A DNA stretch of 64,000 nucleotides from Candidatus Rokuibacteriota bacterium (GTDB lineage: Bacteria; Methylomirabilota; Methylomirabilia; Rokubacteriales; CSP1-6): positions 107,502 through 171,501 of the forward strand of contig JACPDG010000037.1 of assembly GCA_016184125.1 (NCBI GenBank). The letters run 5' to 3'. The position numbers and the translations under genes were made by a program. Below the pieces are notes generated by a model. The model worked only from the letters and a program-made list of their open reading frames with translations, was not told the DNA's origin and did no database searches. This document shows, in pieces, positions 34,740 to 60,272 of the stretch (position 1 is its first letter; the number at the start of each line of letters is the position of its first letter).

Positions 34740-34887
34740 GCCACGTCAAACGTTTCCCTACATGTGGCACGCGCCTCCCTCAATGCACGGTCGCGCCCGC
34801 GAAATGCGCGCGTCGCCGCACGATGTCGGCGGTCCGGCACGTGTCTTGCGACAACCCGTTCACGACATGCAAGCGAGTGCAGCCTCG

Positions 34888-36324
<1,437 letters not shown>

Positions 36325-36356
36325 CAGGGCGGCCGCATACCCGGAGGATCACGTTC

Positions 36357-37064: not shown

Positions 37065-37087
37065 CCTGATCCGGGAGAGGGTGTCCC

Positions 37088-38755: not shown

Positions 38756-38757
38756 GC

Positions 38758-39723: not shown

Positions 39724-39732
39724 AGGAGCCCC

Positions 39733-41701: not shown

Positions 41702-41705
41702 GAGA

Positions 41706-41808
41706 GGAGCCCGTGAACGAATCCGGTGCCCGAGCCGCGTCCCGGGTCCCCCGGGACGCGTGCGAGCGACCGGGGGGGCTTGGGGGGGCTTCGATAGTCC
41801 CCCCCATG
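41706..41808. repeat. Hairpin repeat family, copy F (inverse orientation); supplies the udk start codon
   Basis: ..CTTGGGGGGGCTTCGATAGTCCCCCCCATG. The terminal CCCCCCATG is the ATG of the uridine kinase gene. Confidence 0.75.
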
Positions 41809-43696: not shown

Positions 43697-43706
43697 GGAC
43701 TCCCGA

Positions 43707-46159: not shown

Positions 46160-47553
46160 GTGAACCGCTGTTCTGGCTCGCCGCGCTGCTGCTCGCGTAC
46201 ACGTGGGCCGGCTACCCGCTCGTGCTGGGTCTCGTCACGCGTCGCGCGCGCCCGCGTCGACGTGAGCTCATGGGGGGATTGTCGATGCCCCCGACACCCT
46301 TACGAAGGGGGCTCACGCCCCCCTCGTCCCCCGGCCCCGCGCTCGGAGCGCCCCGGGGGGGGCGCGCGGACGCACCCGTGCGGTGCGCGGACGCACCCGT
46401 GCGGTGCGCGGACGCACCCGTGCGGTGCGCGGACGCACCCGTGGTGCGCGGACGCACCCGACAAAGCCGTGGCGCTCCTCGATCACCCGATTCGCTCTCA
46501 CGCCGCCGGACGTGCCCGCGAGTCAGCGTGATCGTCGCCGCGTACAACGAGGGCGGGTGCATCGCCGGCAAGATCCGCAGCACGTTCCAGCAGCGGTACC
46601 CCTGGGACTGCCTCGAGCTCATCGTCGTTTCCGACGGCTCGACCGATGGAACGGACGATGTCGTGAAGCGGTATCCGGACCCGCGCGTGAAGCTGATCCG
46701 GCAGGAGCCCCGCAGCGGGAAGTCGGTGGCCCTGAACCGGGGCGTCGCCGCCGCGCGCGGCGACGTCCTCGTCTTCACGGACGCGAACGCCGTGTTCGCG
46801 CCCGGCGCGATCGCGCGCCTCGCGGCGCCGTTCGACGACCGGCGGGTCGGCCTCGTCTCGGGACAAGGCCTCTACGCGTCCGGCGCGGCCGATGCCCGCG
46901 CGGTGTCGAACGGCTACGTCCGCTTCGAGGCGTTCCTCAAGCGTGGCGAGGCCGCGCTCGGCTTCGTCGCCGGGGCGGACGGGGCGATCTACGCGTTGCG
47001 GCGCGAGCTGTATCGCGAGCTGCACGGCGCGCAGGTGAACGACCTCCTGCACCCCGTCCAGGCGGCGCTGGCCGGGACCCTGTGCCGCTTCGATCCGAAG
47101 GCGTTCACCCTCGAGCCGCCGTCGCGCGGGGGCAGCCAGGAGTTCAGCCGGCACGTGCGGATCATCGCGCAGGGAGTCCACATCGTGCGCGAGTGGCTCC
47201 CCCGACTCGTCGCCGCGCGCCGCTGGCGCGCCGTGTGGATGCTCGTGTCGCACCGCATGCTCCGCTGGGTGACCGCGCCGTCGCTCGGCGTGATGCTGCT
47301 CGCGAACGCGCGACTCGCCGGCGGTGACACGTTCTACGCCATCACGCTGGCCGGACAGGGTCTGTTCTACGCGACGGCGCTCACCGGGTACCTCGCCGAG
47401 CGGCTCGGCGTCCACCTCGGGCCCCTCGCAATTCCGTACTACTTCTGCACGGTCGCAGCCGCCGGCATCGTCGGTCTCGCCCGGTTCGCGCGGCGCGGCG
47501 CCGAGAGCGTCTGGGCACCCCGGGGGCACGCCGCCGTGTCGAAGCGTGCATGA
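46156..47553 (+). CDS. Glycosyltransferase family 2 with an in-frame ~88-aa repeat-element insertion
   Basis: N-terminal TM helix (LFWLAALLLAYTWAGYPLVLGL), then the repeat-encoded segment, then the GT2 core (VSVIVAAYNE, VVSDGSTDGT, DAN). The frame is maintained throughout. Confidence 0.7.
   Translation: MSEPLFWLAALLLAYTWAGYPLVLGLVTRRARPRRRELMGGLSMPPTPLRRGLTPPSSPGPALGAPRGGRADAPVRCADAPVRCADAPVRCADAPVVRGRTRQSRGAPRSPDSLSRRRTCPRVSVIVAAYNEGGCIAGKIRSTFQQRYPWDCLELIVVSDGSTDGTDDVVKRYPDPRVKLIRQEPRSGKSVALNRGVAAARGDVLVFTDANAVFAPGAIARLAAPFDDRRVGLVSGQGLYASGAADARAVSNGYVRFEAFLKRGEAALGFVAGADGAIYALRRELYRELHGAQVNDLLHPVQAALAGTLCRFDPKAFTLEPPSRGGSQEFSRHVRIIAQGVHIVREWLPRLVAARRWRAVWMLVSHRMLRWVTAPSLGVMLLANARLAGGDTFYAITLAGQGLFYATALTGYLAERLGVHLGPLAIPYYFCTVAAAGIVGLARFARRGAESVWAPRGHAAVSKRA
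46269..46505. repeat. Hairpin repeat family copy H with internal 21-bp x ~4.5 tandem repeat, inside the GT2 coding sequence
   Basis: CATGGGGGGATTGTCGATGCCCCC... followed by GCGCGGACGCACCCGTGCGGT x4, which encodes RCADAPV repeats. Confidence 0.8.
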
Positions 47554-48716
47554 AGGTTGATCGACACGGGGGGGAGCGGTCGCCGCGACCGGCCGCGCCC
47601 GGGGGCACGGCGCTCACCGTGCGGCGCATCTACAACGCCGATCGGTGGAACTGCATCGTCCAGGGCTTCCCGCGGTACGACCTCAGGCAAGGGTTCGAGT
47701 GGGGCGAGCTGAGGGCCGAGCAGCGCTGGCGTCCCGTCCGGTTCGCGGTCTTGCGTGACGCGGAACCGGTCGCCGCGTGCGCGGTGCTCTGCCGCGCGAT
47801 CCCCGGCGCGGGCGGCATCCTCTATGTCCCGCGGGGGCCGCTGTTCCGGTCCGACGTTCCCGCCGGTCTCGATCGCGTCCTCGAAGAGCTGAGGGCGCTC
47901 GGTCGGCGCACGCGCGCGATCGCCGTCCGGATCAGCCCGCCCGTGCCGATGGACGACACCGACAGCATCGCGTGCCTCGACCGCAGCGCGCTCGCGACCG
48001 TGCCGGAGCCCTGGACGACGTGGAACTCGCCGCGCTACGTGCAGGTGCTCCATCTCCGGCGTCACGAGGCGGAGCTGCTCCGCGGCGTCCGCCGGCGGTT
48101 CCGCGAGTACATCGCCGCGGCACCGCGCCGGCGGCTCGTCATCGAGCCGTCGGACCGTGACGACGACCTCGTCGAGTTCCACGCGCTCATGCTGGACGCC
48201 GGGCGCATGAAGGGCTTCCCGGTCCGCGATCTCGCCTGGTACCGCGCGCTCGTGCGTCACTACCGGCCGGAACGTGCCGTCACGCTGCTCGTCGCCCGCG
48301 AGCAGGACACGATGGTCGGCGGACTGCTGGCGGTTCGCTTCGGACGCAAGAGCTACATGCTCTACACGTCGGTGCGCGGGACCCTCGCGGAGTCCGCCCG
48401 CCACCACGTCGCGCCGGCGCTCTGCTGGGAGTACAGCCGGCGGGCGCGCGCCGAAGGATGCGAGCTGGCCGACCTCGGTGGCACCGGCGTCGGCATCCCG
48501 CCGCAGGAGGGGGACCCGGGCTGGGGTCTCTACCACTTCAAGGCCGGGCTCGGATGCTCCCTGGAGACGTTCGTCCACCTGCGCGACATGGTGCTCCGGC
48601 CGCTCCTCTATCGCCTGTTCCGCGCCTGCGAGGCGCAGCTTCTGCCGCCCCTGTGGCGGCTCGTCGCCCGTGCGCCTCGAGCATGGCCGGCGCGCCTCGT
48701 CGGGGCGGCGGCGTGA
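47550..48716 (+). CDS. FemAB-family (GNAT-fold) protein, exosortase-locus subfamily
   Basis: Acyltransferase fold with the LYHFK...C motif near the C-terminus. ATG overlaps the GT2 stop (ATGA). Confidence 0.75.
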   Translation: MKVDRHGGERSPRPAAPGGTALTVRRIYNADRWNCIVQGFPRYDLRQGFEWGELRAEQRWRPVRFAVLRDAEPVAACAVLCRAIPGAGGILYVPRGPLFRSDVPAGLDRVLEELRALGRRTRAIAVRISPPVPMDDTDSIACLDRSALATVPEPWTTWNSPRYVQVLHLRRHEAELLRGVRRRFREYIAAAPRRRLVIEPSDRDDDLVEFHALMLDAGRMKGFPVRDLAWYRALVRHYRPERAVTLLVAREQDTMVGGLLAVRFGRKSYMLYTSVRGTLAESARHHVAPALCWEYSRRARAEGCELADLGGTGVGIPPQEGDPGWGLYHFKAGLGCSLETFVHLRDMVLRPLLYRLFRACEAQLLPPLWRLVARAPRAWPARLVGAAA

Positions 48717-50377
48717 GCGCCCGCGGCGCGCTGCTCAGGAACACGTTCTGGTACGGCCTCGTCACCGTCGGCGGCCTGCTCACCGGCGTCGTGATGTCCG
48801 TCGTGCTCGCGCGCGGGCTCGGGCCCGCCCGAATGGGCGAGTACTCGTACGTGCTCTGGGTGGGGCGCACGCTGACCGCGATCGCCACCCTGGGCTTCGC
48901 GCTCGCGACGACCCGCTACACCGCGACCGCCCTCGCGAAGGGCGACGCGGCGCTCGCGTGGGGCTTCGTCCAGCTCCTCAGGCGGCGCCAGCTCGCGACG
49001 ACGGCGATCGTCGCGGCGATCGCGATCCCCGTGATGCTGCTCGCCGCCCCCGGGTCACTCCGCTGGCCGCTGGTCGTCGTCTGCCTCGCGCTCTTTCCCG
49101 TGGCGCTCGAGCACATCTACTCGCACGCGGTGTACGGCGGGCAGCGGTACGAGCTCACCGCGAAGGCGAGCGCGGTCAAGATGTCGCTTCATCTCCTGGC
49201 CGCCGTCACGGTGCTGTCCCTCGGCTTCGACATCCTCGGCCTCGTCATCGCGAACACGATCGGGACGACGATCGCCTGCGCCGTGCAGCGTGGCAGCGTC
49301 CGCCGCATCTACCCGCGCGCGGCGGCGCCCGTGCCGGACGACGCCCGCGCCGAGCTGCGCGCCTACCTGGTGCCGCTGTCCGTGGTCGTCGTGCTCGATG
49401 CCATCGTGTGGGACCGGTCCGAGGTCTTCTTCCTGAGACTCTGGGCATCCCCGCAGGATGTGGCGTTCTACAGTCTCGCGTTCGGGCTCGCGACCAAGGC
49501 GATGGTGCTCCCCGAGGTCGCGGTCGGGGCGCTGCTGCCGACGTTCTCCGCGCTCCACGGCCGCGGCGCCTCGGGAGAGTTCCGTGCCGTCTACCGTTCG
49601 GCCCTGCGCCACGTCGCGCTCGCCGCCGTCGCCATCGCATCGATCGGCGGCGCCCTCGCTCCCGGCATCGTCGGCTTGCTCTATGGCGAGCAGTACCTCC
49701 CGGTCGCGGCGCTGTTCGCGGCGCTCGTCTCCGTGGCGGCGGTGTCCTCGATGCGCCGCGTCGCCTGGTCCGCGCTCCGTGGCGCCGGAGACCGCCGCTG
49801 GGCCGTCACGGCCACGAGCCTGGCGGCGGCCGTCAACCTCGCCGCCGCCGCGCTCCTGATCCCGAGCGGCGGCGTCTGGGGCGCGCTCGCCGCGAACAGC
49901 GCCGCCCAGGGCGTGGCGACGCTGATCGCCTTTGCGGTGATGGCGCGGACACACGACTGCGGCTTCCCGATCGCGGCCGTCGCGAGGATCGCCCTCGCGG
50001 GCACGCTCGCGCTCGTGACCACGATGGCCGTGCTCGACGGCGAGACGCACGTCCTGCGCCTGCTCGTCGCAGGCGCCACCGGATTCACGGTGTACGCCGG
50101 CGCGTGCGCCGGCCTCCGCGTGGTCGGGCGCGCCGAGTGGCACGTCGTGAGCCGGACGCTGCGTCGCAGGCTCGGGGCCCGTGAACGAATCGGCGTGCCG
50201 AGCCGGGCCCGGGTTCGCCCCGGGCCCGGCGAACGCTTGGGAGGGGTGCGGGGCCATGTCGGGGCCCCGCATGATCTCGGACCTCGACCCGCGCCGGCGC
50301 CCAGGACATCCGGCGCGCCGGGGAGCGAACCGTTCACGAAGGTGCCGGCCCCGGCCGCCCCTCCGCAGGGAGATTGA
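48713..50377 (+). CDS. Polysaccharide biosynthesis flippase (Wzx/MOP family); C-terminal tail encoded by repeat copy I
   Basis: GTG overlapping the FemAB-like gene stop. About 12 TM helices. The last ~60 aa (..ARERIGVPSRARVRPGPG..) are repeat-derived. Confidence 0.75.
   Translation: MSARGALLRNTFWYGLVTVGGLLTGVVMSVVLARGLGPARMGEYSYVLWVGRTLTAIATLGFALATTRYTATALAKGDAALAWGFVQLLRRRQLATTAIVAAIAIPVMLLAAPGSLRWPLVVVCLALFPVALEHIYSHAVYGGQRYELTAKASAVKMSLHLLAAVTVLSLGFDILGLVIANTIGTTIACAVQRGSVRRIYPRAAAPVPDDARAELRAYLVPLSVVVVLDAIVWDRSEVFFLRLWASPQDVAFYSLAFGLATKAMVLPEVAVGALLPTFSALHGRGASGEFRAVYRSALRHVALAAVAIASIGGALAPGIVGLLYGEQYLPVAALFAALVSVAAVSSMRRVAWSALRGAGDRRWAVTATSLAAAVNLAAAALLIPSGGVWGALAANSAAQGVATLIAFAVMARTHDCGFPIAAVARIALAGTLALVTTMAVLDGETHVLRLLVAGATGFTVYAGACAGLRVVGRAEWHVVSRTLRRRLGARERIGVPSRARVRPGPGERLGGVRGHVGAPHDLGPRPAPAPRTSGAPGSEPFTKVPAPAAPPQGD
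50178..50272. repeat. Hairpin repeat family, copy I (inverse orientation)
   Basis: CCCGTGAACGAATCGG...GGGGCCATGTCGGGGCCCCGCATG. Confidence 0.75.
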
Positions 50378-50380
50378 CCG

Positions 50381-50425
50381 ATGCGCATCCTCGTCACCGG
50401 CGGCGCCGGTTTCATCGCAGCATGA
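50381..50425 (+). pseudogene. 14-codon remnant of an NAD-dependent epimerase/dehydratase N-terminus (MRILVTGGAGFIAA*)
   Basis: Rossmann signature VTGGAGFI terminated by a TGA that overlaps the exosortase ATG. Confidence 0.35.
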
Positions 50426-51282
50426 CGGCGCTGGCGCGTGTCTCTTCGCAGTCGATCGGCGGCACGGCCGTCCTCGTCCTCGGCGGGCTGCTGGCGGTGG
50501 CCTACGTTCCCGTGCTGATCGATGTGACGGTCGTCGCGTGGAGCGTGTCCTACTACTCGCACGCGTTGCTCGTCCCGCTCTTCAGCGCCTGGCTGCTCTG
50601 GCAGGATCGCCGATCGAGGAACGGCGGCCCACCTGCGATCCTGCCGGGCGTCCTCCTCCTCGGGATCGCGGCGGCCGTGCTCGTGACCGGCACCGTCGCG
50701 GCGAGCCTCACGCTTCGCGCGCTGTCGATCGTCCCTGGCGCGTTCGGCATCGCACTCCTGACGGCCGGCCGCGCCGGCACACGCGCGAGCGCCTTCCCGA
50801 TCGGGTTCCTGGTGCTGATGGTCCCGCTGCCTTCCGGCGCGATCCCGCAGCTGTCGCTCCCGCTCCAGCAGCTCGCCGCCAACGTGGCGGCGTTCGCGCT
50901 GAACACGAGCGGCATCCCGTCGATCCAGCAGGGGCTCCTCGTCCACATGCCGAACGGCATCAGCCTTCACGTCACCGAAGCCTGCAACGGGCTGCGCTTC
51001 CTGTTCGCCATGCTCGTCGTCGGCGTCGCGTTCGCCGGGCTCGCGGTGCGCGGGACGATCCGGCGCGGGCTGACCGTGCTCCTGGCCCTCGCGATCGCGA
51101 TCGCCGCGAACCTCGTCCGTGTGAGCGGCACGGGCGTAATCGCGTACGCCTGGGGTCCGGAAGCCGCGTCCGGGTTCATGCACGTGGCGTACGGGAAGAT
51201 CGTGTACGCGGTCATGCTCGTGCCCTTCGCGGCGGTCGTGCTGCTCCTGCGCCGCTCGAGCGTGAGCGTCACGTCGCGATAG
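50422..51282 (+). CDS. Exosortase (EpsH/XrtA family)
   Basis: Polytopic membrane protein with the conserved exosortase Cys region (TEACNGLR) and an Arg (R.L.A.A.A.N..R). Confidence 0.8.
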   Translation: MTALARVSSQSIGGTAVLVLGGLLAVAYVPVLIDVTVVAWSVSYYSHALLVPLFSAWLLWQDRRSRNGGPPAILPGVLLLGIAAAVLVTGTVAASLTLRALSIVPGAFGIALLTAGRAGTRASAFPIGFLVLMVPLPSGAIPQLSLPLQQLAANVAAFALNTSGIPSIQQGLLVHMPNGISLHVTEACNGLRFLFAMLVVGVAFAGLAVRGTIRRGLTVLLALAIAIAANLVRVSGTGVIAYAWGPEAASGFMHVAYGKIVYAVMLVPFAAVVLLLRRSSVSVTSR

Positions 51283-52046: not shown

Positions 52047-55000
52047 TCAGCGGAGCCGGTAGCGCTTGACCTCGTAGGGCCCGAAGCGGTCGGACAGGAT
52101 CGTGCCTTCGCCCGTGAGGCGCGTGGCGTCGCCGGTGGCTGAGGCGGCAGGCCCGAGCCCCGAGACCTCTCTCGCCGGGTCGGTGAGGGTCAGCGTCACC
52201 TGGAGCGGGCTCGACCTTGTGTTGTACGCGAAGAGGTACCGCGTGCCGTCGGGCATGCGCTTGCCGAGCATGCGGATCGCACCGCCGCTCGACTCGCGCG
52301 CGACGACCGGCGCGTCCGGTGCGAGCAGCACCGGCTCGAGCGCCTTGATCTCCTTCGTCACGGTCACGAGGTCCTGCCAGCGCTGCTCGCGCTCGGCGGG
52401 ATCCTTGACCCACCCGAGCCCGCGCGCGCCGAACGACCAGTAGAAGAGTCCCTTCGCGCCCTCGACGATGGCCATCCAGCTCATCGTCCGGAGCTCTTCC
52501 CGGCTCGGCCACCCGGCCGCCTTGGTCAGCGGAAAGTACTGGAGAACCATCCACACCGGGCGACTTCGCATGACGGCGTCCTGGCCGAGACGTGTCCAGT
52601 CGCCGACCATCGCGAGGTTGTTGTCGCCGCCCGGCTTCGTGATCGGGTACGGGTCGAGCCCCATGACGTCGAGCGCGTCGCGCCAGAGCGGCGCCTGCCG
52701 CTGCCAGCCGTCGCCCAGGACGCCGTACGTCACCGTGCCGGGCGCCGCCCGCCTGAGCTCCCGGAGCTGGCGAAAGACCTTCGGCACCATCTCCGCGGTG
52801 CGCTCGTCCATCGTGTAGAACCCGGCGAGGCCCGGGTGGCTGGCGAGCGTCCTGCCGACCCAGCGGTTGAGGGCGTCCTCGCCGTCGCGCGCGGCCGGGT
52901 ACCGGAGCTTGCGGTACTGCCGGTCGTCCTCGTAGTAGAAGTTCACCGTCTGCAGGTAGTGGATGCCGCGCGTCTTCAGATCGTCCATGTAGGTCTGGAG
53001 CGCGGGGATCGGCGCCGCTCCGAGCCAGTAGTTGATGAGCATGTTGATCGGCGCCTGCGCGATGCGCTCGTTGCCCCATCCGCCCCGCCCGCTCGCGTAC
53101 TCCGCCCGCGCCGTCGAGTAGCCGCTCGTGTTGTAGAGACCGAGGATGAACGCGGGCTTGCCGTGGAGGTACGCGACGTTCTCCTCGTCGTACCAGACGT
53201 GGAGCGTCTCCCGCATGCGCGCGGGCGCCTTCACGATGCGGTACTCCGGATGGCGAAATACCTCGCGGCCGTCGGCGCCCACGAGCTCCGTACGGACGAG
53301 GTACTCGCCGTTGGGGATCGACGCGGCGTCGAGCTCGACGACGAGGGGCGCGCGGCCGCGCCCGAGGGGCGCGCGGCCGCGCCCGAGGCCAGCGTCCTTC
53401 GTCGGCACGGCAGCGGTTGCCGGATGCTCGCGTCGCGCGCGCACGGTGCCTCGGCTCTCGTCGACGAGCGAGACGCGGACGCGAGCACCGCCGAGCCCGT
53501 CGCCCGAGGGGCGCGCGGCCGCGCCCGAGGGGCGCGCGGCCGCGCCCGCGTGCACCGCGACCGCGATGCGCACGGTCTGTGGGCGGTCGTCGAACAGCAT
53601 GCCGCGGTAGTTCGGGTAGAGGAGGAAGGACTCGACCGGCGGGCGCTTCATCGGGGCGAGCACGACGTCGTCGAACCACGCGGTGCCGTCCGGCCTGCCG
53701 TACGCGCCGGCGGTGACCCGGTACGTCCCGGCGTCCTCCACGGGGATCGCCAGGCGCGCCAGCCGCGTCCAGCCCGACGTCCCGCGCGCGATGGGCGTGC
53801 AGTGCCACCAGTTGATCCGCGGCCGACCGTCCAGGCAGAGCCTCACGCCGGTCCGGTCGGACGCCCCGCCGAGGCCTTCGCTCTTCACCCAGCCCTCGAG
53901 CACGTAGTAACCCGCCTCGAGCGTCACCACCTGATCGGCCGCCGGAACGTATCGCGCGGTCCCGGCGTTCGCGAGACGCAGCGCCGCCTGCCCGGACCGC
54001 GCGCCGGTCGCAAGCGCCCACAGGGTGTCGTCGAGCGTCACGCGCCAGCCGTCCACGGTCTTGCCGGCCGACCCCTCGAAGCCCGGGTTCTTCAGCACGT
54101 TCGCCGCGGGCTCGAGCGTCGGCAGCGCCGTCAACCCGCCCGGCTGGGCGAGCGCCGCGCCGGGCAACGCCACGAGCGCGGGGACGAGCAGCCAGGCGGC
54201 GAAGCGCGAGGGCGCGGACCCGAAGGGCCACTCGAGAGCCCGCCCCTCGGGCGCGGCCGCCGCGGGTGCGCTCGCCTCGTCGCGCGCGGGCAGCATGCGA
54301 TGCAGGACGATCGAGACGAACACGACCATCCAGAACATCTTCTCGTACTGCGCGCTGATGAATGCGCCGGACACCATGAACCCGACGAGCCCGCTCCGGA
54401 GCCCCTCGGCCCAGCCAGCGAGCTCGCGGCCCTCGCGGTCGCCGCCGACGCGTGTCGCGCGGCCGAAGGTCCGCAGCACCTGCCCCACCATGAGCAGGAA
54501 GACGGCGAGCACGGGCAGGCCGAGCTCGGCCGCGAGCTCGAGGTAGCTGTTGTGGGCGATGTACTCGCGCCCCAGGTCCGGCGCGTACGCCACGGACAGC
54601 GACTTGAAGTTCTCCGGACCGACGCCGGTGAAGGGCGCGTCCGCGATCATGCGCAGTCCCGCCCAGAAGAGCGCGATGTGCGCGCGGTTCGACTGCTCGA
54701 GGCCGGGTGGCTGCGGGCTCGTCGGGTCGAGCGTCGCGACCGCGCGCTCCGCGAGGCCCGTCGGCAGGATCAGCGCCGCGACGATGATCACCACGAGTCC
54801 CGAGACCGTCGCCAGGAGGCCGCGTCGCCGGTACGCGTACATCGACGCGGCGACGACGAGGCCGAGGAAGCCGCCGCGGGACGCCGTGAGGAGGAGCTCG
54901 AGCACGAGCACCAGCCCGGCGCCGAACCACAGCCGGCGGCGCCAGACCGTCGACTGCAGTCTCGCGATCGCGAACGCGAGCGGGATCACCAGCACGAGGT

Positions 55001-55457
55001 TCGCGGCGAAGTAGTTGGTCTCGTACAGGCCGGTACCGAGACGGCTGTCGTAGCGGATCGACTGGCGGAACGCATACGGGAAGACGATCACGAACGTCAG
55101 CGCGATCGTGTACACGACCCGCCGGAGGTCCTCGTGCGTCCTCACGCTGCTGGCCACGAACGGCAGGAAGAGCAGGAACGCCAGGTAGCGCGAGATCGGC
55201 AGGAGGCCGCTGCCCGAGAGCGCGCCGGCGAAGAGCACGCCCGCATAGAACACGACGAACAGCCGCGCCTGTGGCGACGACCACAGACTGCCGCCACCGT
55301 CACCGCCGGCGATCCGGAGGGTCGCCCACGCGAAGCCGATCATTCCCAGCAGCTTGATGACCGTGAAGTCCGGGAACACGAGGAAGCTGTCGGCCAGCTT
55401 CAGATGGGGGTTCGTCTCGAACGGCATGATCAGGATCATCAAGAGCAGGAGCGGCAT
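52047..55457 (-). CDS. O-antigen ligase/polymerase-like (Wzy_C) membrane domain fused to ~700-aa periplasmic glycoside-hydrolase-like domain
   Basis: The N-terminal ~420 aa carry many TM helices with Wzy_C features (SRGGFLGL...HNSYLE). The C-terminal region has carbohydrate-binding-like and TIM-barrel-like segments. Internal tandem repeats encode GRGRAPLGRGRAPL and PSGAAARPSGAAARPSG. Confidence 0.7.
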   Translation of the reverse strand: MPLLLLMILIMPFETNPHLKLADSFLVFPDFTVIKLLGMIGFAWATLRIAGGDGGGSLWSSPQARLFVVFYAGVLFAGALSGSGLLPISRYLAFLLFLPFVASSVRTHEDLRRVVYTIALTFVIVFPYAFRQSIRYDSRLGTGLYETNYFAANLVLVIPLAFAIARLQSTVWRRRLWFGAGLVLVLELLLTASRGGFLGLVVAASMYAYRRRGLLATVSGLVVIIVAALILPTGLAERAVATLDPTSPQPPGLEQSNRAHIALFWAGLRMIADAPFTGVGPENFKSLSVAYAPDLGREYIAHNSYLELAAELGLPVLAVFLLMVGQVLRTFGRATRVGGDREGRELAGWAEGLRSGLVGFMVSGAFISAQYEKMFWMVVFVSIVLHRMLPARDEASAPAAAAPEGRALEWPFGSAPSRFAAWLLVPALVALPGAALAQPGGLTALPTLEPAANVLKNPGFEGSAGKTVDGWRVTLDDTLWALATGARSGQAALRLANAGTARYVPAADQVVTLEAGYYVLEGWVKSEGLGGASDRTGVRLCLDGRPRINWWHCTPIARGTSGWTRLARLAIPVEDAGTYRVTAGAYGRPDGTAWFDDVVLAPMKRPPVESFLLYPNYRGMLFDDRPQTVRIAVAVHAGAAARPSGAAARPSGDGLGGARVRVSLVDESRGTVRARREHPATAAVPTKDAGLGRGRAPLGRGRAPLVVELDAASIPNGEYLVRTELVGADGREVFRHPEYRIVKAPARMRETLHVWYDEENVAYLHGKPAFILGLYNTSGYSTARAEYASGRGGWGNERIAQAPINMLINYWLGAAPIPALQTYMDDLKTRGIHYLQTVNFYYEDDRQYRKLRYPAARDGEDALNRWVGRTLASHPGLAGFYTMDERTAEMVPKVFRQLRELRRAAPGTVTYGVLGDGWQRQAPLWRDALDVMGLDPYPITKPGGDNNLAMVGDWTRLGQDAVMRSRPVWMVLQYFPLTKAAGWPSREELRTMSWMAIVEGAKGLFYWSFGARGLGWVKDPAEREQRWQDLVTVTKEIKALEPVLLAPDAPVVARESSGGAIRMLGKRMPDGTRYLFAYNTRSSPLQVTLTLTDPAREVSGLGPAASATGDATRLTGEGTILSDRFGPYEVKRYRLR

Positions 55458-55487
55458 GCGATCCTCCAGGCCCCCGTCGGGGGCCTC

Positions 55488-56483
55488 TCAAGCTCGGGCG
55501 GGCAGCGCCCGGCGCAGCAGGGCCCGGGCGCCCTCGCGCAGGCCGCGCGGCCCCAGCGCTCCGAGCGCGCGCAGGAAGAGTCCGGCGTCGCCGGTCTCGA
55601 TGAAGCCGGTGAGGAACACGAACGCCGCGCGCCCCCACAGGCCCTGCCTGGCGTACGACCAGCCGAGATGCCGGCGCAGCCGGATGATCCCGCGACGCGC
55701 GGCGGCGGCGGCCTCCGGGTCCTCCGCGTGGCGCAGCCGCTCGCGGTGCAGCAACCGCAGCATCGCGGTGCGGCCGAACACCGCGTGCACGCGGTGGATC
55801 GAGTCGGACGAGATCCGGACGATCGCCACGGGCCGGTCGATGTACCCGAAACGAAACCGGCGGGCGAAGCGCACGAGGAATTCCCAGTCCGAGAACGACC
55901 GCCACGACTCCATGAAGCTGCCGACGACGTCGAAGGCGCTCGTGCGGATCGTGAACGCCGTCGGGAGCACCGGCACCTCCTCGAGCAGGACGAGGAACAT
56001 CTCGCGCTGCGACAGCGCGATGCCGTCCGGGCTCGCGCGGCCCGCGATCAGCCGGGAGAACACGGCGCTCGCCCGCACGAACGACGGCACGAAGTGGTCC
56101 CCGTCGATCTTCTCCACGTCCGAGAACACCGCGTGCACCTCGGGATGCGTGTCGAGAAACCTGACCTCCGCGGCCAGCTTGTCCGGCTTCCAGAGGTCAT
56201 CGGAGTCCAGGAACGACACGAGCTCGCCCTGAACGACGGCGAGCGCGGCGTTGCGTGCGGCGGCGGCGCCGCGGTTGACGCCGCGGATGGTCACCATACG
56301 GGGATCGGCGACCGCCCGCAGGACCTCGGCCGTCTCGTCGGTGGACCCGTCGTCCACCACGATGAGCTCGAAGTCCGCGTGCGTCTGCGCGAGCGCGCTC
56401 CGTATCGCGTCGCCGACGACCAGGGCTCGGTTGTACGTCGGGAGGATGATGGAGACGGCCGCGCGCGTCACCGTCGCCTTCAC
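55488..56483 (-). CDS. Glycosyltransferase family 2
   Basis: VSIILPTYNR, VVDDGSTD, and the DSDD motif (FLDSDD). Start GTG at 56483, or the GTG at 56471. Confidence 0.75.
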   Translation of the reverse strand: MKATVTRAAVSIILPTYNRALVVGDAIRSALAQTHADFELIVVDDGSTDETAEVLRAVADPRMVTIRGVNRGAAAARNAALAVVQGELVSFLDSDDLWKPDKLAAEVRFLDTHPEVHAVFSDVEKIDGDHFVPSFVRASAVFSRLIAGRASPDGIALSQREMFLVLLEEVPVLPTAFTIRTSAFDVVGSFMESWRSFSDWEFLVRFARRFRFGYIDRPVAIVRISSDSIHRVHAVFGRTAMLRLLHRERLRHAEDPEAAAAARRGIIRLRRHLGWSYARQGLWGRAAFVFLTGFIETGDAGLFLRALGALGPRGLREGARALLRRALPARA

Positions 56484-57262
56484 TCCCTGCCGCCCACGAT
56501 CGCGGCAACGGCGGGCGGCGTGTCCAGACGCCGGGCGTAGCGATGCGCCCGGCTGATCCACCAGACGTGCCCCGCCACCGCCCACCAGACCGCGAGGAGC
56601 GCCATGGCGTCGGCCAGGGCGGCGACGAGGGTCAACGCGTAGAGTCCTGGGCTCTCGAACGACAGCGCGAACGCCGCGCGGCCGATCCCGAGCGGGCTCC
56701 AGCGCTTCCCGGCCATACGCACCGGGACGACGTGACCGAGATCGCCGGCACCGAGCGCGCCCGACACGCAGGCGGCGTAGAAGCGCAGCGTGTCGCCGAC
56801 CGCGATCGCGACGGCGCCGAGCGCGCCGGCGGCGAGGAGCGCGCCGGAGCCGGTCTCGACCGCGGCGCTCCAGCCGACGCCAAGCGGCAGGCTGGTCTTG
56901 ACGAGCCCGTGACCGACCAGATCCAGGAACTCGCCGGCCGCCGACTTCCGGCCGGTGAGCCGCGCCACCTCGCCGTCGACGTAGTCGAGGAGGTACGAGA
57001 GCTGGAGCAGCAGCGCGCCGCCGATGCGTGCGAGCCAGCTCTCGGACGCGACGAGCGCGACCGCGGCCAGCCCGAGGACGATCCACGCGACGGTGATCCT
57101 GTTCGGCGTCGCGCCGACGCGGGCGAGCGGGATCGACACGTAGATCGATCCGAGGCGGTACAGCCGGTCCGTGATGCTCGGGCTGTACTCGCGGGGCTGG
57201 GCGATCGCCCGCAGCTCAGCGATCGAAGAGGGTCTCGGCACGCCGCAGGTCGTCGTGGTCAT
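56480..57262 (-). CDS. CDP-alcohol phosphatidyltransferase-family protein
   Basis: The D-G-x2-A-R...G...D...D signature is present (DYVDGEVARLTG...GEFLDLVGHGL), with multiple TM helices. Confidence 0.75.
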   Translation of the reverse strand: MTTTTCGVPRPSSIAELRAIAQPREYSPSITDRLYRLGSIYVSIPLARVGATPNRITVAWIVLGLAAVALVASESWLARIGGALLLQLSYLLDYVDGEVARLTGRKSAAGEFLDLVGHGLVKTSLPLGVGWSAAVETGSGALLAAGALGAVAIAVGDTLRFYAACVSGALGAGDLGHVVPVRMAGKRWSPLGIGRAAFALSFESPGLYALTLVAALADAMALLAVWWAVAGHVWWISRAHRYARRLDTPPAVAAIVGGRE

Positions 57263-57941
57263 CGATCTCCACCCACCGGAGCCCGGTGACGTCGGCGACC
57301 TCGAACCAGTGGCCGCCGGCAATGAGCCGCTGGAACGCCGCCTCGTAGTAGGCCTGCCGGCCGCCGCTCGTCCCGCTGCTCGCCAAGATCTCGCGCCCAC
57401 GGGCGAACAGTGGCGCGGCGCTCGTGCGGTCGATGCGTGCGATTCCGATCGACTCGGCGACGGCGACGAGCCCGGCGTCGAGCTGCTTGCCCACGCCGCT
57501 GACGTGACCACCGTCGAGCGCGATCTTGACGGCGTCGTCGTCGAGCGCGCGGCCGCGGTCCACCGCGAGCCGGGTTCCCGGCTCGAGCAGCGGCCTGAGG
57601 ACGGCCGGCTCGAACACGAGATCGCCGTCGATCAGCAGGAAGTCGTCGTCGACCCACGGCGCGGCGACGAGCAGCGACGCGAGCGTGTTGGTGTCGGCGT
57701 ACGCCGGGTTCTCGACCGTCGTCGCCTCGACGTCGCGGCGCGTGTCGAGGAATGCCGCGAGGCGCTCGCGCCGGTACCCGGTGACGACGACGACGGACTT
57801 CACGCCGGCCTCGACCAGCACGTCGAGCGTGCGATCGAGCACCGGCCGGCCCCCGAGCGGCACGAGCGCCTTGGGCCGGTCGTCGGTCAGCGGCCTAAGC
57901 CGCGACCCGAACCCGGCCGCCAGGATGAGGGCTTTGAGCAT
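57216..57941 (-). CDS. Sugar/alcohol-phosphate nucleotidyltransferase (LicC/MobA-like NTP_transferase)
   Basis: LILAAGFGSRLRPLTDDRPKALVPL signature motif. Confidence 0.75.
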   Translation of the reverse strand: MLKALILAAGFGSRLRPLTDDRPKALVPLGGRPVLDRTLDVLVEAGVKSVVVVTGYRRERLAAFLDTRRDVEATTVENPAYADTNTLASLLVAAPWVDDDFLLIDGDLVFEPAVLRPLLEPGTRLAVDRGRALDDDAVKIALDGGHVSGVGKQLDAGLVAVAESIGIARIDRTSAAPLFARGREILASSGTSGGRQAYYEAAFQRLIAGGHWFEVADVTGLRWVEIDDHDDLRRAETLFDR

Positions 57942-59781
57942 CCGGCACGTCCTTCACGATCGTCTCGAGGGCTGCGAGGAACGCGTCGCAGTGGCGCACC
58001 GTCAGGGCACCGATGTTCGCCACCTGGAAGACGCGGTCCGCGAGGATCCCCTTGCCGCCATAGACGATGTACCCGGCACGCTTCACGCGGTCGTGGAACT
58101 CGGCCGCGCCGAACCCGCGGGGCAGCTCGAGCGTCGTCAAGAGCGGCGACATCAGCGGCTCGGGGATGACCGGTCGCAGACCGAGCCGCCGGCATCCGCG
58201 CCGGAGCCGGCGCGCGAGCCGCTGGAACCGCAGGAAGCGCTGCTCGACGCCTTCGGCGAGCAGGTCGTCCAGCGCGGCCTCGAGCGCGAAGTAGAGGTTG
58301 ACGGCCGGGGTGTTCGGCGTCTGGTTCTGCTTGTCGTTGTACGAGAAGTGCTTGTAGAGGTCGAGGTAGACGCTGCGCGCGCGCACCGCGGCGAGCGCCT
58401 CGAAGGCGTCGCGCTGGCCGCAGACGAACGCGAGACCGGGAATCGAGCCGATCGCCTTGTTCGCGCTCGACGTACAGAACGTGAGCCCGTTGGCCTCCAC
58501 GTCGACGGGCACGCCGCCGAGGCTCGAGATGGCGTCGACGTAGGTCTCGAGCCCGTGGCGGCGCGCGAGGAGCGCGATCTCCCTGAGCGGGTTCAGCATG
58601 CCGGTCGACGTCTCGTGGTGGACCCACACGACCGCGTCGAGGTTGCCGCGCGCCATCGCCTGCTCTACCGCGGAGAGGTCGAACGGCTGCCCCCACCGCG
58701 CCGTGAGCGGCGTGACCGCGACGCCGAGGTGCCGGGCCATGGAGATCAGGCGCTCGCCGAACTCCCCGTTGGCGAGCACGAGCAGCCGGCGCCCGATCGC
58801 GGCCGTGCCCAGGAGCGCCTCGTTGGCGGCGGTGCCCGAGCCGGTCAGCACGACGGTCGTGTACCGGTGGAAGTTCCGCACGCCGAAGACCTTGCCGAGC
58901 TTGAGACGGACGCGGTTCAGCAGCTCGGAGAACTCCAGCTCGCGGTGCCCGATCTCCGGCGCGGCGACCGCGGCCTTCACGCGCTTGGCGACCATGACGG
59001 GGCCCGGGCAGAACAGCAGCTGCCGGCGCATGCCGGGCATCGCCGACAGCGCGGCCGCGCGCTCGGGATCGCCGAACTGCTTGAGCGCCTCGACGTAGTC
59101 GGACAGGAAGTCGATCTCGACCCACGGCTGGCCGGCGACGTCGACGGTGCCGAGCGGCCGGCGCACGGCCAGGCGCGTGATCGCGTCCTCGTACCACGCG
59201 GTGCGCTCGCCCGCGGCGAGCATCTGTCCGACCACGTCGAAGAGCTCGTCGGCGACGGCGGCCGCGTAGCGTGCGATGCCGAGGAACTCGCCGTGCGCCG
59301 TGCCGGCGGGCAACAGCTTGCCGATCGCGCTCACGTCCCCGTGCGGGCCCGTGACGACCTTCACCTCTTCCTCGCCCATGACCCGCACGCGGTCGATCGC
59401 CAGCACCGCGTCGCGCGGATCACGCAGGACCTCGGCGAGGATCTTGTCGTCGAGGACGAGGTCGCCGTCGACGACGAGCAGGTCGTCCCCGCGGCAGACC
59501 TCCCGCGTGAGCCAGAGCGAGTAGAGCGTGTTGGTGCGGTCGTGGAGCGGGTTGTCGACGATCTCGACGCGCGTCGCGAGATCGGAGCGCCGGAGCACGT
59601 CGAGCACGCGCTGTTTCGCCCAGCCGACCACGATCGCCGGGGTGACCCCGTGCGCGGTGAGCTGACCGAGGAGCCGCTCGAGCAGCGTCGTGTTCCCGAG
59701 CTCGAGGAGGGTCTTCGGTCGGTCCTGCGTGAGGGGGTACAGCGAGCGGCCCGCTCCGGCGGCGAGAATGACGGCCTTCAT
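57895..59781 (-). CDS. Fusion: LicC/PntC-like cytidylyltransferase + 2-aminoethylphosphonate-pyruvate transaminase (PhnW-like class V aminotransferase)
   Basis: N-terminus MKAVILAAGAGRSLYPLTQDRPKTLL. The C-terminus aligns with AEP transaminase (HHETSTGMLNP, SSANKAIGSIPGLAFV, FQVANIG). Confidence 0.8.
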   Translation of the reverse strand: MKAVILAAGAGRSLYPLTQDRPKTLLELGNTTLLERLLGQLTAHGVTPAIVVGWAKQRVLDVLRRSDLATRVEIVDNPLHDRTNTLYSLWLTREVCRGDDLLVVDGDLVLDDKILAEVLRDPRDAVLAIDRVRVMGEEEVKVVTGPHGDVSAIGKLLPAGTAHGEFLGIARYAAAVADELFDVVGQMLAAGERTAWYEDAITRLAVRRPLGTVDVAGQPWVEIDFLSDYVEALKQFGDPERAAALSAMPGMRRQLLFCPGPVMVAKRVKAAVAAPEIGHRELEFSELLNRVRLKLGKVFGVRNFHRYTTVVLTGSGTAANEALLGTAAIGRRLLVLANGEFGERLISMARHLGVAVTPLTARWGQPFDLSAVEQAMARGNLDAVVWVHHETSTGMLNPLREIALLARRHGLETYVDAISSLGGVPVDVEANGLTFCTSSANKAIGSIPGLAFVCGQRDAFEALAAVRARSVYLDLYKHFSYNDKQNQTPNTPAVNLYFALEAALDDLLAEGVEQRFLRFQRLARRLRRGCRRLGLRPVIPEPLMSPLLTTLELPRGFGAAEFHDRVKRAGYIVYGGKGILADRVFQVANIGALTVRHCDAFLAALETIVKDVPDAQSPHPGGRVRVAA

Positions 59782-59915: not shown

Positions 59916-60272
59916 TCACACGGCCGCCTGAACGATCGCGGAGGCGCCGCCCCAGCGCCCACGCGCGTCGACCGCGCGCACCGTGAGCGCGTGGCGGCCG
60001 GGGAGCAGAGCAGGCAGCAGCAGCTCGCACGTCTCGTGCGCCGGCATCCACGATTCGATGAGGTCACCGTTGACGTAGAGGGACAGGCGCACCGGCGCGA
60101 CACCACCGGCGAGCTTCACCAGCGCCACGCGGGCGCGCGGCGCGGACAGCGGCCCGATGCCGACCGTCAGGAAGACGCGCAGCCCCGGACTCTTGCTCGT
60201 GCTCCGCCTCGGCGCGAGCAGCATCTCCTGCGTCGTCTCGGTGTGTCGCCGCACGATCGTCCTTCCCTGCAT
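59916..60272 (-). CDS. Hypothetical protein (possible Ig-like fold)
   Basis: ORF only. Weak beta-sandwich-like patterning and no supporting signal. Confidence 0.25.
   Translation of the reverse strand: MQGRTIVRRHTETTQEMLLAPRRSTSKSPGLRVFLTVGIGPLSAPRARVALVKLAGGVAPVRLSLYVNGDLIESWMPAHETCELLLPALLPGRHALTVRAVDARGRWGGASAIVQAAV

Follow-up and report, generated by a model that had tools for sequence, protein, structure and literature searches.

The stretch of Rokubacteria DNA analyzed here (the window, 64 kb) contains five co-directional genes, g1 to g5, which occupy positions 52047-59781 of the minus strand and have been delineated by GC3-guided gene calling and ORF translations. The same five minus-strand genes were called independently on metagenome contigs of identical sequence, which confirms the set with overlapping or abutting ends outlined in a preliminary description. 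The overlap amounts to 47 nt between g1 and g2 (the g1 stop lying within it), 47 nt between g2 and g3 and 4 nt between g3 and g4; g4 and g5 are separated by a 30 nt gap, and SD-like sequences are found 5' of g2 to g5. A small conserved ORF of 118 aa (59916..60272, minus strand), located 134 nt upstream of g1, is also called on L001 and L002, and a 117-aa homologue precedes the g1-like fusion in L012 and L013. Its sole Pfam match is a weak one to BiPBP_C and its membership in the operon is uncertain. In agreement with the preliminary description, Pfam analysis showed that the 31-62 kb region around the operon is an exosortase (EpsH) EPS locus. This exosortase/PEP-CTERM-type locus (31355..51282, plus strand) encodes, among others, a response regulator, a priming sugar transferase and a sigma-54 activator, together with Poly_export, Wzz/GNVR, AAA ATPases, a deacetylase-DUF3473 and a PF01663 phosphodiesterase, as well as GT2, FemAB-like, Wzx flippase and exosortase EpsH proteins.

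The first gene, g1 (57895-59781, minus strand, 628 aa), combines NTP_transf_3/NTP_transferase (aa 2-121) and Aminotran_5 (aa 274-513) Pfam domains. Its N-terminal domain (aa 1-240; 59062..59781, minus strand) is a LicC/PntC-like cytidylyltransferase which scores 40.4 bits against NTP_transf_3 (cut-off 27), also matches NTP_transferase and can be aligned with the PntC domain of Tde1415, the PntC-AEPT fusion of Treponema denticola (PDB 6PD1/6PD2; Rice et al. 2019, PMC6697681). Lys25, Asp106, Lys153 and Tyr195-Glu196 of the Treponema enzyme are kept across 68 fusions. The Arg residue of the Gly-loop is shifted by one position in the g1 subclade ("GAGRSL"), the Firmicutes relatives having the canonical "GERL". 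The C-terminal domain (aa 250-628; 57898..59034, minus strand) is a PhnW-like class-V aminotransferase with conserved PLP Lys442 and Asp416. Altogether, g1 aligns end to end with 6PD1 (E = 6e-61, query 2-606/chain 4-606), making it a full-length homologue of Tde1415 with the fusion architecture initially proposed.

The second gene, g2 (57216-57941, minus strand, 241 aa), encodes another LicC/PntC-like cytidylyltransferase (NTP_transf_3, 67 bits) which shares 42% identity with the N-terminal domain of g1, carries the canonical GFGSRL...PK motif and has the PntC domain of Tde1415 (5e-18), LicC (3e-15) and IPCT as best PDB matches. Its orthologues are found 3' of the fusion in L012, L014, L016, L017 and L018. 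The acidic pair contacting the substrate amine in the Treponema PntC is Asp/Glu in both cytidylyltransferases, which therefore argues for a small amino-phosph(on)ate as substrate. Downstream, g3 (56480-57262, minus strand, 260 aa) encodes an integral-membrane CDP-alcohol phosphotransferase (CDP-OH_P_transf, 28.3 bits, cut-off 22) with AF2299 as its only PDB match (6e-8) and NCBIfam matches to PIP and archaetidylinositol-P synthases. In its motif (aa 93-118; nt 56909-56986, DYVDGEVARLTGRKSAAGEFLDLVGH), the fourth Asp is replaced by His.

The last two genes relate to glycan assembly. g4 (55488-56483, minus strand, 331 aa, GTG start) is a family-2 glycosyltransferase (Glycos_transf_2, 109 bits) similar to TuaG/EpsD-like enzymes in NCBIfam. 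Since g4 is missing at the corresponding position in L012, a relative with 86% identity, it is a variable accessory gene. g5 (52047-55457, minus strand, 1136 aa) contains Wzy_C at aa 182-321 and about 700 aa without Pfam match. Its N-terminal part (aa 1-400; 54258..55457, minus strand) is a polymerase/ligase-like membrane domain (Wzy_C, 59 bits, cut-off 31.7), which also scores 76 bits against TIGR03097, the exosortase-A-associated O-glycosylation ligase model, under the cut-off of 188. For the C-terminal part (aa 430-1136; 52050..54170, minus strand), Pfam and PDB sequence searches gave no match. Its AF2 model (pLDDT 81.9, pTM 0.80) comprises two beta-sandwich/CBM domains, a TIM barrel and a beta-sandwich, and the best Foldseek hits in the PDB are GH2 and GH5 enzymes (E ~1e-14, 10-12% identity), pointing to a glycoside-hydrolase-like module. 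Homologues of this part exist as stand-alone proteins of ~680 aa in Rokubacteria/Methylomirabilota; in other members of the family, an OafA-type acyltransferase is fused to it. The assignments first made from the sequence alone for g2 to g5, a second NTP-transferase, a CDP-alcohol phosphatidyltransferase-family membrane enzyme, a GT2 and an O-antigen-ligase-like fusion protein, are thus all borne out.

The identity of the head group hinges on the aminotransferase domain of g1. Its best NCBIfam match is the PhnW-AepZ model TIGR03301 (307.5 bits) and the next family is BhcA (148 bits), a wide margin which sets PhnW/AepZ models apart from every other named family. However, it remains below both curated cut-offs, namely 360.8 bits for TIGR03301 and 400.8 bits for the AEPT model TIGR02326, against which it scores 226.8 bits. 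Likewise, the three segments HHETSTGMLNP, SSANKAIGSIPGLAFV and FQVANIG put forward in the preliminary description are all present, but the block-for-block match to AEPTs masks the decisive difference: the Gln of FQVANIG (Gln586; codon 58024..58026, minus strand) occupies the position of the AEPT substrate-binding Arg (Arg339/340 in 1M32). This residue is Arg in 4/4 solved AEPTs (1M32, 9KK8, 7E7G and 6PD1), in 26/26 Ppd/Ppm-linked environmental AEPTs and in all R-type loci, as we designate those which retain it. Two equally absolute switches, Tyr91 to Phe (F341; codon 58759-58761, minus strand) and Phe241 to Asn (N490; codon 58312-58314, minus strand), accompany this replacement, g1 having F341/N490/Q586 in place of a Tyr/Phe/Arg triad invariant in 29 validated AEPTs. 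The Gln and the associated "Q-type" signature are common to the 119/119 closest database homologues. In a neighbor-joining tree built without the diagnostic columns and without outgroup, Q-type enzymes separate from R-type ones with a bootstrap of 74/100, which falls to 32-42/100 when an outgroup is included; tree support for the split is thus moderate. Judged by scores, residues and tree, the g1 transaminase is not a canonical AEPT, and Q-type enzymes represent a widespread sister lineage of AEPTs devoid of the key substrate-binding Arg.

The genomic context was compared over dereplicated loci having an NTase/CDP-OH partner and an upstream flank of 1.2 kb or more (180 kb of sequence for Q-type and 186 kb for R-type loci), with an inspected span of +/-8-10 kb around each relative and of 64 kb at the g1 locus. 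Ppd-like and Ppm-like genes were found at 0/11 and 0/11 Q-type loci, which span widely differing organisms and contexts, vs 11/15 and 5/15 R-type loci with the same partners (Fisher p = 2e-4). R-type loci reproduce the published phosphonolipid layout composed of split Ppd, AEPT, PntC, CDP-OH and HpnL-like genes (PMC8942020, PMC5987646). In the window itself, a search for the EDKx5NS motif, phmmer searches with real Ppm and split-Ppd probes and a Pfam search for PEP_mutase or TPP families among the 43 ORFs spanning 3-64 kb were all negative, in line with what had been noted from the sequence. Similarly, the module lies amid housekeeping genes on groundwater contigs, perhaps from small genomes, and neither there nor at L021 is Ppm or Ppd present within 8 kb.

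These data bear directly on the initial proposal of a CMP-2-aminoethylphosphonate product, according to which g1 would convert phosphonoacetaldehyde into 2-aminoethylphosphonate (AEP), CMP-AEP would be formed with or without g2, and g3 would transfer the head group to EPS or lipid, the precursor arising from Ppm and Ppd encoded elsewhere in the genome or from scavenged AEP/PnAA. The homology of g1 to a biochemically characterized enzyme over its full length, the AEPT models as best family matches and the combination of an AEPT, two PntCs and a CDP-OH transferase, which is the published group-1 phosphonolipid core (PMC8942020), speak for it. Moreover, the known pocket positions of the partner NTases of Q-type modules are indistinguishable from those of true, Ppd-linked AEP clusters, and C–P genes can be unlinked, since the R-type AEP clusters L080 and L091 retain Ppd but have no Ppm in the surrounding 10 kb. 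Conversely, the three absolute active-site switches, the scores under the curated cut-offs and the absence of Ppd and Ppm in every tested context do not support this product, and scavenging of AEP would make the transaminase needless. We consequently regard the AEP proposal as a minority reading. Since the substrate-binding Arg is lost and C–P-forming genes adjoin none of the eleven Q-type loci compared, the head group is probably an amino-alcohol phosphate other than AEP, and the "phosphoserinol-type" substrate formerly kept as a fallback becomes the better-supported option. No recurring precursor-supply gene was found beside the Q-type module at the inspected loci, which fits a central metabolite as substrate.

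Taken together, we favor, with middling confidence, a Kennedy-type module for head-group activation and transfer (g1 to g3), which would be a paralogue of the AEP module uncoupled from C–P synthesis and acting on a central keto-phosphate. The Q-type PLP domain of g1 would aminate a phosphorylated aldehyde or ketone straight from central metabolism. The leading candidate, a guess from chemistry, is the conversion of dihydroxyacetone phosphate (DHAP) into serinol phosphate, glyceraldehyde-3-P or glycolaldehyde-P being alternative substrates. In C. jejuni, Cj1437 is the enzyme catalyzing this transamination. The reaction has precedents in this organism, in connection with its capsule, and in RtxA (PMC3222319). 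The N-terminal domain of g1 and/or g2, whatever their division of labor, would then convert the amino-alcohol phosphate and CTP into a CDP-amino-alcohol, from which g3 would move the phospho-amino-alcohol onto an acceptor hydroxyl at the cytoplasmic face with release of CMP. In this operon, a sugar within the lipid-linked EPS repeat unit is the most plausible acceptor; g4 may extend this unit and g5 may polymerize or ligate it, the periplasmic glycoside-hydrolase-like domain of g5 possibly trimming or sizing the polymer. This favored scheme does not account for one consequence of the Arg loss, which also takes away the usual anchor of the amino-donor alpha-carboxylate.

The choice of acceptor can be weighed against the distribution of the module, as the aminotransferase (fused or not), the NTase and the CDP-OH transferase form a recurring conserved unit. 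It has been found in Rokubacteria- and Acidobacteria-like EPS loci and beside deoxysugar genes; with a stand-alone aminotransferase, it occurs as AT + CDP-OH + NTase triads. Transfer by g3 to a membrane lipid such as diacylglycerol, yielding an unusual amino-phospho(no)lipid with either head group, would reduce the link with EPS genes to co-regulation. CDP-alcohol phosphotransferases typically make lipid head groups, consistent with the synthases matched by g3; R-type relatives sit in phosphonolipid-type clusters, and no polysaccharide genes are located near the module in Tumebacillus, its relative and the stand-alone-AT loci. Nevertheless, the triad of the window and of L012/L013 is flanked by EPS genes and stands directly upstream of a Wzy gene; at L014/L015, genes for Wzx, Wzy and GT precede it, and the start of the L010/L011 triad coincides with the end of a GT2 gene. 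The His variant of g3 is also confined to the window, L010, L012, L014, L022, L024 and L025, the closest fusion-type relatives, and those with enough flank lie in polysaccharide loci; wherever else the motif is visible at Q-type loci, the Asp is kept. This switch suggests a changed acceptor. In addition, the HpnL/LPG_synthase-like lipid gene of R-type clusters is present at none of the Q-type loci inspected. A lipid acceptor thus appears doubtful, and slightly more so than the AEP proposal.

A last scheme, in which a CDP-amino-alcohol would react with a second alcohol phosphate, activated by g2, to give a soluble, compatible-solute-like phosphodiester reminiscent of di-myo-inositol phosphate, is highly improbable. 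It finds an echo in the weak matches of g2 and g3 to the bifunctional IPCT/DIPPS model (79 and 33 bits, cut-off 580), in the Q-type locus L018, which adjoins a myo-inositol-1-phosphate synthase and two methyltransferases, and in the LigT-like phosphoesterase which accompanies the module in Firmicutes (Tumebacillus and one relative). Yet the inositol link is seen in one locus only, the window ORFs screened with Pfam include no phosphatase or inositol-phosphate synthase, and the overlapping or abutting triad-Wzy stretch of the window couples the module translationally to the GT2 and Wzy genes.

Among known systems, Tde1415 is the closest to g1. In addition to the two-domain architecture, they share the cytidylyltransferase residues K25, D106, K153 and E196, the PLP Lys/Asp and a cell-surface glycan context. 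However, their identity is just ~30%, the AEPT Tyr/Phe/Arg triad of Tde1415 is Phe/Asn/Gln in g1, and Tde1415 adjoins ppm and ppd, which are lacking near g1; Glu104 of Tde1415 is Asp in g1, but likewise in real AEP clusters. [quoted passage not shown] 2013; Li & Horsman 2022, PMC8942020), including those of Nostoc (PMC5987646), resemble g1 to g3 by their PhnW-like transaminase, two LicC/PntC-like cytidylyltransferases and CDP-alcohol phosphotransferase. In contrast, they possess their own Ppm (often PntC-fused), Ppd, alpha-KG oxygenase and HpnL/LPG_synthase-like protein, none of which occurs here or at the inspected Q-type loci, and the CDP-OH proteins of R-type clusters have 450-500 aa vs 260 aa for g3. 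Di-myo-inositol-phosphate synthesis by IPCT/DIPPS (PDB 4MND, 2XME) also pairs a cytidylyltransferase with a small CDP-alcohol phosphotransferase, but it involves no transaminase and its product is soluble. With the RtxA N-domain and Cj1437 the likeness drawn here is in the chemistry proposed for the first step, from central keto-phosphate to amino-alcohol phosphate for a surface polysaccharide, serinol ending there as an amide or free alcohol and not as a CDP-activated phosphodiester. Finally, phosphocholine decoration by LicC/LicD and the eukaryotic Kennedy pathway (ECT, EPT/CEPT) share LicC-type CMP-activation of an amino-alcohol phosphate followed by transfer to a glycan or lipid hydroxyl; g3 is not LicD-like but, as EPT/CEPT, a CDP-alcohol phosphotransferase. 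While these pathways rely on a kinase, here the fused transaminase apparently makes the amino-alcohol phosphate in situ.

Five minus-strand genes (52047-59781) constitute the operon, and the same calls were made independently on identical Logan contigs. Due to the 72% G+C content of the window, the real reading frames were chosen by third-position GC. The first gene, g1 (57895-59781), encodes a 628-aa cytidylyltransferase–aminotransferase fusion (NTP_transf_3 and Aminotran_5) and is followed by a second cytidylyltransferase, g2 (57216-57941; 241 aa; NTP_transf_3), a CDP-alcohol phosphotransferase, g3 (56480-57262; 260 aa; CDP-OH_P_transf), a GT2 glycosyltransferase, g4 (55488-56483; 331 aa), and g5 (52047-55457; 1136 aa), in which a Wzy_C domain is joined to ~700 aa without Pfam match. 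The genes overlap by 47 nt at both the g1/g2 and g2/g3 junctions and by 4 nt at g3/g4, g4 and g5 are separated by a 30-nt gap, and Shine–Dalgarno-like sequences lie 5′ of g2, g3, g4 and g5. Reading frames, Pfam matches and independent gene calls thus bear out in full the five-gene operon reported in the preliminary description. A promoter and terminator scan of the region gave no usable signal at 72% GC.

The operon lies in an exosortase (EpsH) exopolysaccharide (EPS) locus which, according to Pfam, spans 31-62 kb of the window and contains a priming transferase, Poly_export, Wzz/GNVR, ATPases, a DUF3473 deacetylase, FemAB-like genes, GT2s, a Wzx flippase and sigma-54 regulators. This locus also encodes a PF01663 type-I phosphodiesterase/nucleotide pyrophosphatase of the alkaline-phosphatase superfamily (43563-44990, plus strand), which could act on phosphodiester-linked substituents or nucleotide by-products. 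Directly upstream of g1, a conserved small ORF (59916-60272, minus strand; 117-118 aa), with a counterpart at 9409-9762 of L012, a contig carrying an 86%-identical g1, has a weak BiPBP_C (Ig-like) hit as its sole match. A gene for a Uma2-family putative endonuclease (51341-51925, minus strand) separates the exosortase gene from the end of g5 and is missing at the corresponding site of L012. A second class-V aminotransferase (3124-4305, minus strand; full-length Aminotran_5, 222 bits) is unrelated to and far from the operon.

Kinship of g1 with the machinery of 2-aminoethylphosphonate (AEP) metabolism is evident at the family level. The protein aligns end to end with Tde1415, the PntC–AEP transaminase (AEPT) fusion from Treponema denticola (PDB 6PD1; E = 6e-61), and its C-terminal half with PhnW from S. 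typhimurium (1M32). The fold-type I class-V PLP machinery is kept, with the Schiff-base lysine K442, the pyridine-nitrogen aspartate D416, the phosphate-binding S315-G316 and T491. Among NCBIfam families, AEPT models score best over their full length, yet all under their curated cut-offs (TIGR03301, 307.5 against 360.8; TIGR02326, 226.8 against 400.8; NF010006, 237.4 against 296). In the profile searches suggested in the preliminary description, g3 exceeds the CDP-OH_P_transf cut-off (Pfam score 28.3 against 22), and g1 stays below those of the AEPT models.

Both nucleotidyltransferases (NTases) match NTP_transf_3 (40.4 bits for g1 and 67 bits for g2; cut-off 27), g2 being a paralogue of the g1 N-domain (42% identical) whose closest solved relatives are Tde-PntC, LicC and IPCT. 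What tells PntC from LicC is that it prefers AEP to phosphate esters. The catalytic and amine-contacting residues established for Tde-PntC by Rice et al. (PMC6697681) are kept in g1 and 68 related fusions (K23, D107, the lysine aligned with Tde K153, and Y197-E198), while the Gly-loop arginine, canonical in g2, is shifted by one residue in g1. An aspartate at the position of Tde-PntC E104 was considered as pointing to an NTase substrate of larger size and rejected, since the same residue occurs in NTases of true AEP clusters. Collectively, the 6PD1 alignment, the NCBIfam ranking and the catalytic residues show that the fusion architecture and the family-level relationship had been correctly recognized.

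The aminotransferase active site tells a different story. Alignment of the best 120 database homologues of g1 with Tde1415 and PhnW revealed glutamine in 119 of 119 alignable homologues at the conserved, substrate-anchoring AEPT arginine position (1M32 Arg339/340; F-R-I-G/A-N-I-G), which is occupied by arginine in all four solved AEPTs (1M32, 9KK8, 7E7G and 6PD1). The FQVANIG motif, previously cited as a match to AEPT, is precisely the block in which this replacement occurs. When metagenome contigs were scanned with a pattern common to both aminotransferase types, the 80 loci obtained fell into three groups on alignment: classical PhnW, a large arginine-keeping group (R-type; TPFT...FRVANMG) and the clade of g1 (Q-type; TPNT...FQVANIG). 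Between 119 Q-type sequences and 29 context- or structure-validated AEPTs, three differences are absolute: F341 for Tyr, N490 for Phe and Q586 for Arg (1M32 Tyr91, Phe241 and Arg339/340), the Arg/Tyr/Phe set being present in the four solved AEPTs and in 26 Ppd/Ppm-linked environmental ones (Ppd, phosphonopyruvate decarboxylase; Ppm, PEP mutase). Further near-absolute differences (Q-type/AEPT) are C258/N, G278/C, N320/V, E340/V, A443/C and G455/V. Two other candidate discriminators, loss of the AEPT loop arginine (1M32 R240) and gain of g1 R527, were discarded, both being common to Ppd/Ppm-linked R-type AEPTs. Without an outgroup and after removal of the three diagnostic columns, neighbor-joining trees separate Q-type from R-type with a bootstrap of 74/100; the phylogenetic claim is limited to this unrooted split, its support being 32-42/100 once a long-branch AGT-like outgroup is added.

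The genomic context follows the same division. A genuine AEPT, which interconverts AEP plus pyruvate with phosphonoacetaldehyde plus alanine, would be expected to be coupled in the genome to genes that supply this aldehyde (Ppm and Ppd, in biosynthesis) or consume it (PhnX, PhnA or PhnY, in catabolism). Two R-type loci, L080 and L091, exhibit by Pfam the published phosphonolipid layout, with a split TPP decarboxylase (Ppd-like), an aminotransferase, PntC, a 450-500 aa CDP-OH transferase and an LPG_synthase_TM/HpnL-like protein, and another locus, L063, encodes a genuine Ppm–NTase fusion. The Ppm of L063 and the Ppd-like proteins served as phmmer probes for ORFs translated in six frames from the window and all 101 loci, and the count covers dereplicated loci with no less than 1.2 kb of upstream flank in which an NTase/CDP-OH partner lies no farther than 3 kb away. 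Ppd-like genes were found in 11 of 15 R-type loci (186 kb inspected) and Ppm-like genes in 5 of 15, in contrast to 0/11 for each in Q-type loci (180 kb; Fisher's exact test, p = 2e-4). In the inspected Q-type loci, there is likewise no EDKx5NS motif, no phmmer match to the L063 Ppm probe and no HpnL-like gene. As noted in the preliminary description, ppm and ppd are missing from the 64-kb window, a statement which holds by motif scan, phmmer and the Pfam families (TPP, PEP_mutase) of the ORFs examined. Since Ppd occurs beside most of the counted R-type modules and beside none of the Q-type ones, it seems that where such a module truly handles AEP, the decarboxylase accompanies it.

A Ppm motif scan as the sole control was abandoned in favor of phmmer with real probes, as it missed Ppm–NTase fusions with EDNx5CS in four R-type loci. 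These fusions (L034:5577-8753; L046:7134-8909; L053:2586-4274, minus strand; L090:2983-4941) carry IEDNVFPKRCS instead of EDKx5NS and adjoin split Ppd, AEPT and CDP-OH genes, the classic context of phosphonolipid clusters; the motif filter of published Ppm inventories would drop them. One such inventory contains no match for Tumebacillus or Rokubacteria.

These data favor, at about even odds, the view that g1-g3 form a paralogue of the AEP module which is independent of C–P bond synthesis. It is rather unlikely, but would accord with g1 still being closest to the PhnW/AepZ models, that the operon makes CMP-AEP from ppm and ppd located remotely in the genome. Further points speak against C–P independence: in some real AEP clusters, Ppm lies away from the module although Ppd stays with it; the absence of C–P genes concerns the 64-kb window and the flanks of its relatives; and loss of the AEPT arginine leaves binding of the amino-donor carboxylate without explanation. 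Against remote C–P genes stand both the contrasting gene context and the Phe/Asn/Gln set of g1 in place of the Tyr/Phe/Arg of validated AEPTs. Thus, while architecture and family kinship stand, the phosphonate chemistry initially assigned to the operon is probably wrong, given the Arg-to-Gln replacement, the sub-cut-off scores and the 0/11 context.

The Q-type module combines a PhnW-like aminotransferase (fused or free) with an NTase and a CDP-OH transferase, and the settings in which it is found again vary widely. With decreasing identity to g1, it is found in a syntenic exosortase locus (L012/13, 86%), next to deoxysugar genes (L010/11, 63%), after a Wzx flippase (L014/15, 57%) and, without polysaccharide genes, in Tumebacillus sp. 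ITR2 and a relative (L016 and L017, 43-44%), in which the triad and a LigT/2H-family phosphoesterase form a four-gene unit (L016:9280-13169; L017:9276-13151). Stand-alone aminotransferases occur in an aminotransferase, CDP-OH transferase and NTase triad (L021, 46% over the aminotransferase half) and, with an NTase, amid housekeeping genes of groundwater contigs (L019/20, 49% over that half). In the most distant case (L018:265-7555, 37%), the Q-type fusion is accompanied by an NTase of 443 aa and a CDP-OH transferase of 203 aa, and the three adjoin myo-inositol-1-phosphate synthase and two SAM methyltransferases, a setting suggestive of an N-methylated amino-alcohol-phospho-inositol as the product of this organism. 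No PEP_mutase or TPP decarboxylase was found within 8-10 kb in any of these relatives. Carriers include Rokubacteria, Terriglobia/Acidobacteria, Tumebacillus and uncultured groundwater and other metagenome contigs; in a collection of species-representative genomes, the closest match (67% identical) lies on a 3.3-kb contig of a Binatia MAG.

Regarding the acceptor, the PF01066 signature D-x2-D-G-x2-A-R-x8-G-x3-D-x3-D (TM2-3) reads DYVDGEVARLTGRKSAAGEFLDLVGH in g3 (aa 93-118; nt 56909-56986), with histidine in place of the fourth aspartate. In CDP-alcohol phosphotransferases, this aspartate is the catalytic base. The variant occurs only in the window and its closest fusion-type relatives (L010, L012, L014, L022, L024 and L025), and all those with enough flank lie in polysaccharide loci; the aspartate is kept in Firmicutes, in most other Q-type loci and in R-type loci having a CDP-OH gene. 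The histidine variant, the overlapping or abutting gene ends and the position of the triad among Wzx, Wzy and glycosyltransferase genes in relatives suggest a glycan as the g3 acceptor here, a lipid being a serious alternative.

The 86% relative has no counterpart of the accessory GT2 g4 at this site. As for the last gene, g5 scores 59 against Wzy_C (PF04932; cut-off 31.7) and 76 against TIGR03097, the exosortase-associated O-glycosylation ligase, below its cut-off of 188. At the sequence level, the 700 C-terminal residues of g5 match nothing in Pfam or PDB. Their AF2 model (pLDDT 82, pTM 0.80) has a TIM barrel together with two beta-sandwich domains and a further beta-sandwich at the C terminus, with GH2 and GH5 glycosidases as best Foldseek matches in the PDB (E ~1e-14, 10-12% identity, TM 0.3-0.47). 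In glycosidases of clan GH-A, which this candidate resembles in fold, the catalytic glutamate pair is carried by strands 4 and 7 of the (beta/alpha)8 barrel. A plausible role for this predicted glycosidase-like domain, joined to a Wzy-like polymerase/ligase, would be to trim or size the polymer in the periplasm. This part (52050-54170) belongs to a large family of ~680-aa stand-alone Rokubacteria/Methylomirabilota proteins and not with a 635-aa ORF of L014, for which fusion with the Wzy_C gene had been considered and BLASTP gave no significant similarity. The family, to which P0153, P0162, P0170, P0172 and P0192 belong, is very abundant in the form of stand-alone hypothetical proteins, and the module, joined to Wzy_C in g5, is joined to an OafA/YrhL O-acyltransferase in others (~976 aa), which suggests a general EPS-modifying accessory domain. 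In addition, g5 contains two perfect in-frame 21-bp tandem duplications (53342-53388, AAARPSG twice; 53501-53548, GRGRAPL twice) which share a 17-nt core, lie in low-confidence loops of the AF2 model and may reflect recent slippage or an assembly artefact.

As Q-type modules share no recurring precursor-supply gene, the aminotransferase substrate would most simply be a phosphorylated carbonyl compound of central metabolism. A candidate first reaction is conversion of DHAP to serinol phosphate, a compound isosteric with glycerol phosphate and near AEP and phosphoethanolamine. Known NTase pocket positions do not discriminate Q-type from R-type loci, and a serinol-phosphate product fits these unchanged residues. 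This substrate assignment is one that we only infer. With a confidence just short of even, we propose that Q-type loci encode a widespread CDP-amino-alcohol pathway which would take a central keto-phosphate such as DHAP and decorate exopolysaccharides, membrane lipids or both with a non-phosphonate amino-alkyl phosphate, e.g., phosphoserinol. Its origin would lie in an AEP/phosphonolipid module, through Tyr/Phe/Arg to Phe/Asn/Gln rewiring of the active site and loss of its dependence on Ppm/Ppd. A phosphoserinol-type substrate, mentioned at the outset as an alternative for the class-V enzyme, is now favored by the residue switch and the absence of C–P genes.

PhnW-like aminotransferases and PntC-like NTases are counted as markers of AEP metabolism by phosphonate surveys and automatic annotation, and most Q-type clade members are labeled "2-aminoethylphosphonate-pyruvate transaminase" in JGI/IMG. 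If Q-type enzymes do not act on phosphonates, many AEP-transaminase annotations of soil and groundwater metagenomes are mistaken and the phosphonate-cycling potential deduced from them is overestimated. The findings would redefine a large set of database annotations and point to an uncharacterized head-group pathway. The module is compact, self-contained and portable, and the surface or lipid head group that it seems to produce would be new, which makes it a candidate source of novel cell-surface chemistry in little-studied phyla. The F/N/Q versus Y/F/R signature allows sequences to be sorted easily and yields a hypothesis, directly open to mutagenesis, on how class-V aminotransferases switch substrates, and Tumebacillus is a culturable carrier usable for identifying the product.

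In the literature searched, nothing relevant was found on CDP-serinol or phosphoserinol, on this gene combination or on links to Rokubacteria or Tumebacillus. Transamination of DHAP to serinol phosphate has a precedent in RtxA (PMC3222319), and work on the C. jejuni capsule provides a second one for serinol phosphate chemistry. Among published phosphonolipid clusters, which include those of Nostoc, the "Burkholderiales_CDP-OH" type (PMC8942020) resembles the window operon in combining a PhnW-like aminotransferase (there AEPT), two PntC-like NTases and a CDP-alcohol transferase.
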